A stretch of 64,000 bases of DNA from Amphiscolops sp. MND2022 (GCA_964187785.1 OZ076409.1:19532001-19596000), one strand, 5' to 3'; positions 12,801 to 16,713 are shown, numbered from the stretch's first letter. Made by a program: numbers and translations. The notes: generated by a model not told the origin, from the sequence alone.

Positions 12801-15800
12801 TCTTTCCGAGTTATTTTCGTGTCCGAGCGGAGGCCGAACATCTTTATACTCGTTTTAGTAGCCAATGAAATTGCTTCATTTTCTCGTGTGAATTGTGTAT
12901 TTAATTGTGTATTAAATCGTGTAACTACCAGAAAATTCGGTTTCATGGACATTGTTGTAGGCGTGTACTCGTTTGTGAACCTGTCTCTTGTGATAGTGAC
13001 GACGACCTTCATCATCTCTGTGGCCATCTTCTCTCTCATGACAGCAGACAGTAGTCTCTTGGGGGACCAGATGAACAACTCGCTCCAGACTCTCTACTCT
13101 TCTGCTGCCACAGGATCTCACTCACAGTCCAAGGCCTGGGACTTGATACAAGTACCTCCGATTTGCACTATAGAAATTAGAAATATTCAGTGGCGTCTCT
13201 AGGGACGATAACCGGCTCTAGGGACGAAATAGTTCAGCTAAGCAAATCAGTTTAGAATTTTCTAAAACAGTACTGTTTAATTTTTGAAAAATTTCCTTTC
13301 AGATTTTTGTGGTTCTTTTCTTTCTCGGCAGTGATGAAAAATCCTACCGTGTTTCGAAATTCAAAACTTACATCTAATGTTTTTCTCTGAATAAATTCAA
13401 ATCCCCTCCTCTCTTTTGTAATTTTTAGAGACGCCACTGGAAATAGTACAACACAAATCACTCCTTTAATGGCCACATCCCCTTCTAGTTTAAACAACAC
13501 CTCCCCGCCCCCGGAGATAGTTAAACACTTTCACTCTCATCTTTTTATGCTCTCATTATTCACAGCTATCTTTTTGTGTACAGGTCCGGTTCGGCTGTTG
13601 TGGAGTGACAGGTCCCTCTGATTGGCTAGTGTCCAGGTGGGTAAAGAGCGAGGAGAGCAACGTGACAGTGAACGGGTTTGCCTTCAAGGCGCCTTTCCCC
13701 TCCCCCTGTTGTCACAGACCCAGTGAAAACAGTCTGGATGCCTTCAACAAACAGGCATGTTCTACAAGTCACCAATGAATATCGTTCACAAACATTCTGA
13801 AACAGCGGTAGTTTTTCAAGCGTTGGTTTTCGAGGTTTTTCACGAATGTCTTGTTATTGAGTACTTTTTTTTCTTTCGTTCGTGCAAAAAAATCGCGTTG
13901 ATTTTTTTTCAGAATCGAAATTTCAAAATGCCTTACTTTTCGCCAACGCATACGTTGCCCTATTTACATGGCACCTTATGTAGGAACCGGTTTGTATGCG
14001 TCTCAAAACCTTCAATCAATTCAGGAGTAAAGGCGAAAACCCAGCTGTTGTCTATGAATTTTTGCAAAAAAATCAAAGCATTAGTCAATTGAGCCTCATT
14101 GGTTTGGCCTGGTCAAAAATTTAATTTGTCCTGCATATGAGAACAAGAAGAAGTAGAACAAGTCGGGATCGGCCCAAGTCAGCGCCATATCTAAGGCTCA
14201 AAAATAGCAAAAGGACATCAAAGTGTCAAGTATTCTTTTACAGTACCCGAAAAACCCAAAAGTTGGATCAAATTGGCGCGCTAAAATGGGGTACCCTTTC
14301 GGATTTTTTAACATCCATTGTGGCAAGACATCAAAAAAATTGAAGGGGGCCTTTCGGTGGAAAAAATACGAAACAAGTCTCACAATGCCGAAAAAACTGA
14401 AAGGGGGACCCTTTGGGATTTTCAACATCCATTCTGTCGCAAAACATCAAAAAATTGAAGGGGTACCCTTTGGAGAATTTTTCCCGGAAAAAGTCTCGCA
14501 ATGCTGAAAAAAACTGAAAGGGGGGCCTTTAGTGTCTCCCGGTATTGTATGCTACGTGGAAAGAAAGGAAAATCCTTTTTGGTTCAGTTCGCTAGGCCAA
14601 ATGATTCAATTCTACGAAATTTCAAGAACTATTTTGGTCAGGTCCTGTAAATTGATAAATTTACTTTAAAAGTCACTACAATAGTCGCGTTTCACTTCAT
14701 GAAGCGCCGACTAAAAGCGAACCCGACAGCTACCGTAGGCGTTCACTGATTGATTGCTCGGTTAAAGTCTTGACTCGGGGTTAATAATTGGCGAAGAGCA
14801 AGCTGGTTTTAGAACAAAACACTCGTTCACGGCCATGTGTTCAACCTCTTCAACAGTATTAATTGGTATATTTAAAAAAGGTAGGAAAATGGTACGTTAC
14901 CTTTGTTGATTAGGAAAGCTTTCGATAGAGTTTACCGTCGATACTTTTGGCGAGCGGGTTAAAATGAAAAATTTTGAAAGTAGTTGAAACTCCATACGAA
15001 AAACCGAAGCCTGTGTCCGTGCCAATGGTACATCATCGCACTACTTAGTAACTGTAAAATAGGCGTCAGACAAGGTGACACACTTTCGCCATTGTTGTCA
15101 ATCATCTTTGATTGATTTTGAACAGTTCATCAGAAACCCAGGTCCCAGTAAAATGGTCACAATGTATACCTTTTATGAACACGAGATTGAAGCTCTCAAA
15201 TTGTTATTCGTTTTGCTGTACGCTGACGATACCGTCCTAATCAGCGAAACCAAAAATGACATGCAAGCTCTGATAAATGAAACAGTCGATTATTTTGAAA
15301 TATTTGATATATTAAACTAAATACAGTCCAACTCGGATAAAAGAAACAATGATAAAAGAAACATTTGGATATAAGAAACGTTTTCGCTCCTCCGCTCGTA
15401 TACTAAACAAACTTTCTATGTTAAAAGGACAACTGATAAAAGAAACTATTGATAAAAGCAACTCTTTTCTCACCGCCATCTGAGTTTCTTTTGATCGAGT
15501 TTGACTGTATATGATCTTCTCGAATGGGAGAATCAGGAAAGTTTCAAAACTGTATGTTGAACAGACAGACTTCGAGAGAGTAGATAAATTCTGCTACCTG
15601 TCCATAATTTTCAAGTACAATAATACTTTTCAATGGTCTATTCAACACTATTGACAAAGTTAAAGAAGAAGCACTTCAAACTGAATGGGATGATATCGGA
15701 ATACCAGGTGCCGATTTTCTTAGTTATATCTTTCTGATTGTCTCATGAAACCTATCCTTCTTTATTGTTGCGAAATTTGGGGTTTAATAAACTTTGAACA

Positions 15801-16713
15801 ATTGGATATTTTTCATCGAAATTTTCTGATGCAAAGGTTATGGTCGGGTAAGCGGGTATATGGTGAGTTCGGAAAAATTGAGCTCAAATATTCGATTTGT
15901 CAAAGAATGATCAACTTCTGGAAATAACTGGCAGGACTGGAATAGAAAATCTTCAAAATTCTGGAGAATATTCTGCCAATGTTTGTGAACAAAGTTTGTA
16001 TTGTAACAAAGAACCTAATTGACTAATAATAGTACATAGTAATAATAGTAGTAATATTACTAGTAATACGTAGTAATAACCCTGGTTGAAAAAAAATGCG
16101 TTCCTTGCAAGGATCTTGCAAGATTTTCTTTCAAGGTCTTGCAAGATAATGCATTTTTCTGCAAGACATCTTGCAAGAATCTTGCAAGAAAAAAAATTTC
16201 CTTGCAAGATTCTTCCAAGGAGAAAAATTTCGTGGAAGGTTCTCGACAATTTTTATTATTTTTTATATTCATTGTTTTTGACTTCAAGTTGACTACTGCA
16301 TAGTGACTATTAGAATCTGTCACAGAACGGGGTTTACTTACTAGAGGATTCAACCACCAAAAAGATGCAAACTCTAGAAAATATTTCTAAAAGTGTGATC
16401 TTAGTGAAGTTATTTGAAAAGTAGTAGTTCCTTGCAAGGAACGCATTTTTTCTCGACCAGGGAAGTATCATACTTAAACATGCCTGTGTGACGTCAGGAA
16501 ATGAGTGAGAATGACATGGCCCTGTGTTACGCGCCCTTGCCCAACAACCACGTGGCCAGCAGGGGCTGTAGAGGAGCAGTGGAGAGTTTCTTGCGAGAGA
16601 ACATCTACCTTCTGTTGGCTGTGTTAAGTCTCGTCCTCTTTCTCCTCTTGTTCGCCCTCGTTCTCTCCCTCATCCTCATTCTAGTCGACTGGCAACAGAT
16701 GCGCCGCCGCTGA
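9876..16713 (+). CDS. Tetraspanin family protein. Exons: 9876-10140, 12961-13151, 13584-13754, 16498-16713
   Basis: Four hydrophobic TM segments; large extracellular loop with WDLIQ-VRFGCCG...SDW, PSPCC and GC motifs preceding TM4; exon phases are consistent. Confidence 0.88.
10821..11329 (-). mobile_element. Helentron/DINE-1-like non-autonomous element (HINE) with internal ~172-bp repeat units, inverted copy
   Basis: Reverse complement of the elements at 58800-62982: subterminal IR AGGAGTCGG/CCGACTCCT, terminal hairpin CCGCATATGCGG, same repeat unit. Confidence 0.6.
11480..11910 (+). repeat. Interspersed repeat family, also at ~440-800 and ~56130-56330
   Basis: Shared block GAGTGGTAATTATGCATT(C/T)GTACGCCGAATTCATTGA...GTTAATTATTCGTTCGCCGAGAGC in several dispersed copies. 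Confidence 0.65.
14158..14716 (-). mobile_element. Second interspersed non-autonomous repeat family (Helentron-like ends); other copies ~18077-18420, ~42227-42637, ~50556-50880, ~62985-63277, ~63930-64000
   Basis: Recurrent ends TTTTAGTCGGCGC and GAGCCTTAGATAT(G/A)GCGCCGACTT plus hairpin, and internal AAAGGG(G)ACCCTTT repeats. Confidence 0.55.
14880..15930 (+). pseudogene. Decayed non-LTR retrotransposon reverse transcriptase
   Basis: Frame-disrupted motifs KAFDRV, GVRQG, LLYADDTVL, KFCYL, KPILLYCCEIWG. Confidence 0.75.
15324..15507. mobile_element. Tc1/mariner-type MITE nested in the LINE remnant
   Basis: TIR CAGTCCAACTCGGATAAAAGAAAC / reverse complement CAGTCAAACTCGATCAAAAGAAAC, with TA on both sides. 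Confidence 0.7.
16080..16462. mobile_element. MITE with ~33-bp TIRs and internal TCTTGCAAGA palindromic repeats
   Basis: CCCTGGTTGAAAAAAAATGCGTTCCTTGCAAGGA ... TCCTTGCAAGGAACGCATTTTTTCTCGACCAGGG; no clear TSD. Confidence 0.7.

Follow-up and report, generated by a model that had tools for sequence, protein, structure and literature searches.

An intron in an acoel tetraspanin gene that probably descends from a hAT transposon, with paired ends that may be kept for splicing

Introners made from DNA transposons with terminal inverted repeats were reportedly described in Huff 2016 (as reviewed in PMC11282704). Here we analyze an intron of a tetraspanin gene in a 64,000-nucleotide stretch of the acoel Amphiscolops sp. 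MND2022 (GCA_964187785.1 OZ076409.1:19532001-19596000, hereafter the window), and we put at roughly 60% the probability that it is an old non-autonomous hAT DNA transposon turned spliceosomal intron, with its end pairing kept by selection for the splicing of weak sites. Transposon-derived introners consist of a terminal-inverted-repeat DNA element (Gozashti 2022, 10.1101/2022.06.06.494994; Gozashti 2025, PMC12130899; review PMC11282704), and hAT-classified introners with 8-bp duplications occur, for example, in Panicum and in the tunicate Styela (PMC12130899, supplementary file 8). As is proposed for the intron described here, the introner element brings one splice site, co-opts the other beside the duplication and leaves the mRNA unchanged. 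Introners, however, are young multi-copy families found by similarity, whereas the introns considered here have unrelated interiors, a decayed duplication and GG, GC or GA donors, and only the end pairing is left. The names of five acoel genera gave no match in 12 of the 14 supplementary files of PMC12130899. In maize, the hAT element Ac/Ds has the end C/TAGGGATGAAA and an 8-bp duplication (PMC3260210); the commonest intron arm here is CAGGGATG. The tetraspanin arm differs from the maize end in having C at position 5. When Ds is spliced from RNA, other donors are used and the splicing is imprecise.

Three further systems share parts of this architecture. Fritillaria borealis is also an animal in which splice sites come from the inverted repeats of non-autonomous transposons and the U1 5' end is canonical (10.1101/2025.08.15.670264; PMC11282704), but more than 90% of its introns are non-GT/AG, with AG-AC and AG-AT ends, whereas about 92% of the resolved introns here are GT-AG and the acceptor stays AG; the terms 'base-pairing' and 'secondary structure' are not present in the main text of the Fritillaria preprint (10.1101/2025.08.15.670264). 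In the nonconventional and intermediate introns of euglenids, CAG(G)/(C)CTG pairing likewise joins the ends, its complementarity is kept, and a transposon fingerprint has been discussed (PMC4770533). The euglenid helix lies within the intron (+4..+6 with -8..-6) and the ends are non-canonical (PMC4770533). In the introns considered here the ends are G..AG, and the predicted helix straddles the 5' junction (-3..+7), leaving 8-13 nt between it and a normal YAG. Eurytemora affinis and Oikopleura dioica have GA and GG donors that resemble those described here in their obligate exonic AG, in A at +3 and in belonging to recently gained introns (PMC5714493; PMC7072748), but their acceptors, unlike those here, resemble canonical ones, and the parts covered give no inverted-repeat or transposon origin. 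From these sources we conclude that hAT introners, transposon-end splice sites, CAG/CTG end pairing and GA/GG donors are each already known elsewhere. Our literature search, which left subscription papers and bioRxiv supplements outside its scope, found no such introns reported in acoels, nor the combination of a 5'-junction helix that outlasts the duplication with introns that have no normal acceptor signal.

The features of the tetraspanin gene and of the intron in question are as follows (all on the + strand).
9876..10140, +: tetraspanin exon 1, placed by tblastn with P0121/P0122 and by junction sequence; start codon uncertain, 9876 or 9897; a GT-AG intron follows
12961..13151, +: tetraspanin exon 2; a GT-AG intron follows
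13584..13754, +: tetraspanin exon 3, with the CCG...FPSPCC loop; its last letters are CAG
13744..13751, +: TCAACAAA, putative copy of the 8-bp target duplication on the left, exonic side, placed by analogy with younger members; 1/8 match to the right copy
13752..13761, +: left arm, putative left terminal inverted repeat, CAG|GCATGTT, from which come the final codon of the exon and, at 13755, the GC donor
16477..16486, +: right arm, putative right terminal inverted repeat, AACATGCCTG, the reverse complement of the left arm
16487..16494, +: N8 spacer, TGTGACGT, putative copy of the target duplication on the right, intronic side; TT is absent from -6/-5
16495..16497, +: acceptor CAG, the first AG past an in-frame TGA, presumably the original gene codon that followed the target site
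16498..16713, +: tetraspanin exon 4 through the stop codon

The host gene was identified as a four-exon tetraspanin by Pfam PF00335, which matched three exons and the ortholog P0121. A HMMER protein search with exon 3 returned two orthologs (P0121 and P0122, 54-59% identical to the exon) and one repeat protein; a word-based protein search with the same exon gave no match, and a metagenome scan with P0121 for a relative gave 54 pattern hits, none of them confirmed. Both orthologs, known as protein sequences only, are continuous across the position of the junction. All GT sites 3' of the conserved FPSPCC are in phase 1, and the AGs past the in-frame TGA at 16489-91 are in phase 0 or 2. Because no GT donor after FPSPCC is in frame, a GC donor is the best fit to the sequence, as the first-pass annotation of the window had read it; among the 10 frame-compatible non-GT options an exonic AG is present only at donor 13754. 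The intron proper then spans 13755-16497 (2743 nt), and the start formerly placed at 13752 is corrected, the CAG found there being exonic. In this genome, GC introns of the ordinary kind (donors GCTAG or GCAAG) carry TT at -6/-5, and most of them lack an arm; the tetraspanin intron, with its GCATGT donor, CG at -6/-5 and an arm, is also unlike U2-type GC-AG introns, in which the donor has a strong consensus around it and the acceptor is normal.

The ends of the intron are complementary as that annotation had described. Over 11 bp, ACAGGCATGTT at 13751-13761 matches the reverse complement of 16477-16487 without a mismatch, and CCTG at 16483-16486 is followed by exactly 8 nt (16487-16494) and then by CAG (16495-16497). 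We estimate the chance of such an end match at about 2e-7 per position, or about 6e-6 across 30 registers at the 3' end. Since the same intron holds another perfect inverted pair, of 13 bp (13784-96 / 15978-90), the length of 11 bp is unremarkable and it is the position that matters. The predicted pairing probability of the arms is 0.78-1.0, which is weak evidence, as it comes from a global fold of the whole 2863-nt segment. A perfect 13-nt palindrome also lies at 16464-16476, between the end of the repeat element at 16080-16462 and the right arm.

The arms are likely to be hAT terminal inverted repeats, and the N8 a second copy of the 8-bp target duplication; a hAT origin of the intron is, in our judgment, very probable. 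The arms are perfect over 10 bp and begin with CAG, in keeping with the short terminal repeats of non-autonomous hAT elements, which start with (C/T)AG. The element would have landed in coding sequence just 5' of a CAG, with a duplication of 8 bp, and CAG|GC at its left end would have supplied a usable donor. Splicing to the original CAG would then take out that CAG together with the element and the second 8-mer; the CAG brought by the element would substitute for the one removed and restore the mRNA; the interior would have been filled by later insertions as the duplication decayed. The spacing noticed earlier is real; on this account it is inherited from the insertion, an origin that had been missed, with N8 as a decayed target-site duplication. 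The reported mismatch between the 8-mer and the upstream exon is also borne out (1/8 bases agree).

The genome (1.07 Gb, with the window on C1) contains at least 150 hAT transposase-domain matches (PF05699), a domain count that is not tied to particular ends. It also contains young CAG/TAG-ended elements with perfect 8-bp duplications, several with CAGGGATG ends and one, at locus L183, with the ACATGCCTG end. L183 is a young element with an 8/8 duplication, a CAG following it and GT at its left end, and no open frame was found across the element; at locus L238 the duplication is 8/8 as well. A genome search for CATCCCTG-N8-CAG gave 255 matches, and an exact partner arm was present within 1.4 kb at 11 of the first 30, the EF-G intron of the window among them. 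In these 11 loci N8 agrees with the exon 8-mer at 48/88 positions (p=4.5e-8; per locus 5, 6, 4, 4, 5, 1, 4, 5, 6, 1 and 7 of 8), which argues that N8 is a decaying duplication and that the tetraspanin intron, at 1/8, is an old member. Joins across such elements were open for at least 25 codons on both sides in 10 of the 12 cases tested for frame, and the two without open frames are the youngest, with the best duplications (7/8 and 8/8). A Pfam check of 8 exon pairs found one that is contiguous in a domain, MFS_1 (profile 3-111, then 118-174). Within the window, a young 835-bp hAT-type miniature inverted-repeat transposable element (MITE) at 40501-41335, whose 22-bp ends and 8-bp duplication are both perfect, overlaps the end of an EF-G exon and its GT donor. 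A common CAGGCATGT introner family was ruled out, as exact partners were found at 0/13 loci. Somatic excision of DNA was set aside, since a CAG at N8 is not required for excision; hAT excision leaves footprints.

The interior had been described as a decayed long interspersed nuclear element (LINE) with several MITEs in an old intron, and our analysis agrees on both counts.
about 14050..14750, no strand assigned: high-copy, MITE-like repeat cluster, recognized by its blast coverage in a comparison with stretches of the genome
15150..16020, +: remnant of a LINE-type reverse transcriptase, decayed and interrupted by stops and frameshifts; RVT_1 match at E=4.7e-4, below the curated cut-off
16080..16462, no strand assigned: MITE with 37-nt inverted ends, 92% complementary
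The ends of the tetraspanin intron had no similar copy in the genome stretches compared.

The tetraspanin intron is not alone in the window, where four other introns show related ends.
3247..3531, +: GA-AG intron of L2HGDH; arm at spacer 8, 7/10 Watson-Crick; a GT-AG alternative 4 nt off turns a conserved Gly to Cys
3733..4571, +: GC-AG intron of L2HGDH; arm at spacer 10, 9/10
6721..7266, +: GC-AG intron of L2HGDH; AAG|GC pairs with CTT at spacer 10, 9/10 plus one G-U
44686..45110, +: GG-AG intron of mitochondrial EF-G; CAGGGATGTC arms, spacer 8, duplication 4/8
We measured 18 introns of the window (6 non-GT, 11 GT and 1 unresolved), a set that excludes the first tetraspanin intron and one intron of L2HGDH. 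Among the six non-GT donors, five (GA, GC, GC, GC, GG) pair across the junction, with the arm stopping 8 or 10 nt before YAG. The L2HGDH gene finds its best named matches in Convolutriloba macropyga and Symsagittifera roscoffensis (67-68%), in keeping with an acoel host.

We widened the sample with 15 dynein heavy-chain and 40 kinase loci, in which junctions were called from protein profiles alone. This yielded 287 adjacent exon pairs, of which 213 were evaluated: 193 GT, 10 non-GT G-donors, and 10 that were unresolved and dropped. Two calls were edited by hand: a GT call was changed to GC at D18, the gap-free option, and the call at K80 was shifted. In the window and the dynein and kinase loci together, all called without reference to pairing, at least 8/10 Watson-Crick pairs were found in 7/17 non-GT and 0/203 GT introns (p=4e-9); part of these 17 non-GT introns are weak calls, and leaving out the two hand edits gives 6/16. 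The class is in the minority, accounting for about 5-6 of the 203 resolved dynein and kinase introns versus 5/18 in the window. Paired donors are mostly CAG|G(G/C/A)ATG, and EF-G, dynein and an MFS transporter each show the same architecture at gap-free junctions. Members have only their termini in common and do not form a multi-copy family of similar introns of the introner type. The dynein D12 GG intron sits within a single exon match of the paralog D11. Copies of the EF-G GG intron are limited to gene-fragment duplicates, with no multi-copy intron family; these fragments (window 43-48 kb, introns included, 96-97% identical, at C12:37.48 Mb and C10:52.94-52.96 Mb, L036-L041) were rejected as a comparison, since at a divergence of about 3% they are uninformative. 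When 264 kb were scanned for the geometry without regard to genes, repeats swamped the result. With a filter for coding sequence, a scan over 1.7 Mb yielded 20 hits, against 12 for the parallel control, but failed to recover the introns of tetraspanin and EF-G; it served as a lead to one dynein GG and one GT armed intron, both kept outside the unbiased counts. One GT-AG intron in dynein locus D6 has arms too, at spacer 7.

If the hAT origin is granted, we consider selection on the pairing likely. Nine paired introns were called without reference to pairing; over the first 8 positions of their arms complementarity is 83%, whereas the duplication, at 25%, is at chance; in the four of them with spacer 8 the figures are 26/32 for the arms and 12/32 for the duplication. 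In the arms as in the duplication, one copy is constrained and the other is free, so that under neutrality the two would be expected to decay to a similar degree. Arm positions 9-12, which lie outside the selection criterion of the 11 pattern loci, are complementary at 31/44 versus 48/88 for the duplication. Canonical acceptors in this genome have T at -6 in 72% and at -5 in 80% of cases, and TT at -6/-5 is present in 3/19 paired versus 117/203 GT introns (p=5e-4), which indicates that the duplication has not decayed into a pyrimidine tract and that two weak ends are retained; K80 is an exception, with spacer 18 and TT present. The suggestion of the first-pass annotation that the pairing is maintained by selection is thus supported for the class (n=9), but is not demonstrated for the tetraspanin intron itself. 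Because the young element L183 has the same ACATGCCTG end, the tetraspanin arms may be an unchanged ancestral repeat rather than the product of compensatory changes, and we dropped the idea that C at position 5 was a necessary compensatory change.

The helix would hold the donor beside the acceptor early in assembly, in place of weak U1 and U2AF signals. Since U1, U5 and U6 must read the positions that it covers, it cannot last to catalysis and would have to unwind before that step. It forms in the predicted folds of all five window introns, in one of them only partly. A survey of U1 genes scored 42 of 17,560 candidates, and its count is therefore a lower bound; 21 genes passed the cut-off, and in the 20 that were read the 5' end is either canonical or altered so as to fit AAG|GT or GTTAGT donors, and no cognate U1 variant for GG-, GC- or GA-ATG donors was present among these 20 genes and 13 pattern hits. 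The U1 small nuclear RNA genes (L272-L291) are diversified, with the 5' ends ACTTACCTG, ACTTACCTT, ACTAACCTG and others, and ACTAACCTG complements GTTAGT, the joint commonest donor (16/193). We tentatively raise the idea, which we regard as rather unlikely, of a second class of spliceosomal introns, in which the retained 3' inverted repeat would be an intron-encoded guide. Acting as a private U1, it would pair across the 5' splice site, place the acceptor 8-13 nt past the helix and take over from the U2AF TT. If that were true, any hAT landing before a CAG would become an intron that is permanent, depends on structure and has a GG, GA or GC donor.

A number of observations weigh against the interpretation of a hAT-derived intron with selected pairing. 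The duplication is only 1/8 in the tetraspanin copy, so the hAT origin of this copy is argued from its geometry and from the family. The reversed control for the N8 count is larger than the count itself (656 vs 255), leaving no raw excess, and an N9 control gives 239 matches. Exact partners are found at 11/30 loci for N8 and at 5/30 (3 distinct) for N9, which is not significant (p=0.14); the clear elements in the N9 control are mostly young (duplications 8, 8, 7 and 3). The tetraspanin arm has 332 matches at N6-12, with no N8 peak among the 100 matches listed, and an exact partner within 9.4 kb is present at 0/13 other ACATGCCTG-N8-CAG loci and at 0/27 control loci; extended partners with one mismatch occur at two N8 and two N10 loci. 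This exact arm is thus uncommon. Spacers of 9, 10, 13 and 18 break the frame with an 8-bp duplication, so that later indels are needed. Just one clear two-sided change is present, AAG/CTT in L2HGDH 6721, along with several uncompensated one-sided changes. By predicted energies the helix (-18.9 kcal/mol) would outcompete U1 on this donor (-5.0), and such structures often inhibit splicing. Finally, the junction is drawn from genomic DNA and protein comparison alone; the joined loop has 23 residues, whereas each of the two orthologs has 18, the very length that would result from use of a weaker GC donor at 13739.

These observations lend themselves to other explanations. With the same hAT origin, the 3' arm could be a neutral fossil, the donor arm being kept as a splice site, a permissive spliceosome doing the splicing and the perfect pairs being due to chance or ascertainment. 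The identity of the arm with the end of young L183, the one-sided uncompensated changes at L218, dynein D11 and D12, and L182, and the choice of the 11 pattern loci on a perfect 3' arm all fit this explanation, and the copepod splices GA/GG donors with near-normal acceptors (PMC5714493). The neutral control from ordinary MITE copies is too small to decide, at 41 rows of which 26 are seeds, and is biased to young copies. We nevertheless hold a neutral fossil to be unlikely, as the arms of introns called without pairing stand well above a duplication at chance, the unselected arm positions 9-12 also exceed the duplication, and the paired introns have not gained the TT acceptor signal.

It is also conceivable, and in our estimate improbable, that the 3' arm is kept for a reason other than pairing, such as overlap with a branch point or pyrimidine tract or inverted-repeat conversion at the DNA level. 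Several arms do begin with branch-like TGAC, TAAC or TTAC, the donor consensus is inherently complementary to the branch consensus, and CCTG is rich in pyrimidines. Yet none of the 203 GT introns, which have branch points too, reaches the 8/10 pairing, and the arms differ among introns, matching their own donor at a mean of 8.4 versus 6.3 for the others (partly circular, as the set was chosen on own pairing); conversion of 11-bp arms over 2.7 kb likewise seems implausible. We give very little weight to a junction used otherwise than drawn, whether because the donor is a different one, because a micro-exon is hidden in the intron or because the assembly is wrong. The ortholog loop, shorter by 5 residues, speaks for such a difference, but the flanking exons are intact and 47-59% identical to the orthologs, exon 3 is single-copy in the genome, and the like architecture recurs at the gap-free junctions named above. 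A transposon-derived intron with selected end pairing remains the explanation that we prefer.

Other features of the window and genome touch the same genes. In the last L2HGDH intron (8190-8863) there is no AG in the acceptor window, and homology to P0001 gives GT...GG; a different perfect 10-bp inverted repeat lies near its ends. The L2HGDH exons at 7267-7484 and 8864-9192 have several insertions of 1-5 residues compared with other acoels, and these, together with the longer tetraspanin loop, are possibly footprints of past insertions. The first EF-G exon (20228-20599) is on the - strand and the remaining gene on the + strand from 39515, which points to an inversion or a mis-assembly. Between them, at about 21800-34700, is what we take to be a Polinton-like element, with open reading frames that by eye resemble a DNA polymerase, an integrase and an ATPase. 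Between this element and EF-G, at 36461-37048 (- strand), is an intronless open reading frame, presumably for a protein resembling ribosomal protein S2/uS5 (also by eye). A repeat near 20690-20800 and 37975-38090 is shared in inverted orientation (by eye). The longest EF-G intron contains a tandem duplication of about 1.9 kb (50000-53760), and a tandem array lies downstream of the gene (58700-62500). Intron positions in the AAA1 domain of about 18 dynein heavy-chain paralogs (L082-L171) are largely different, and the dynein exons between called junctions are mostly 110-320 nt long.

The practical consequence is that gene annotation in this acoel will fail at GG, GA and GC donors. Even if the arm is neutral, the introns would still form a hAT-derived class, in a lineage for which the literature searched reports none. 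The approach reveals introns that are too old for similarity-based introner searches, and a single animal genome would hold every stage between young hAT elements, their duplications still perfect, and old introns in which only the paired ends are left. The finding thereby touches two open questions, how introns arise and how spliceosomes come to take non-GT donors.

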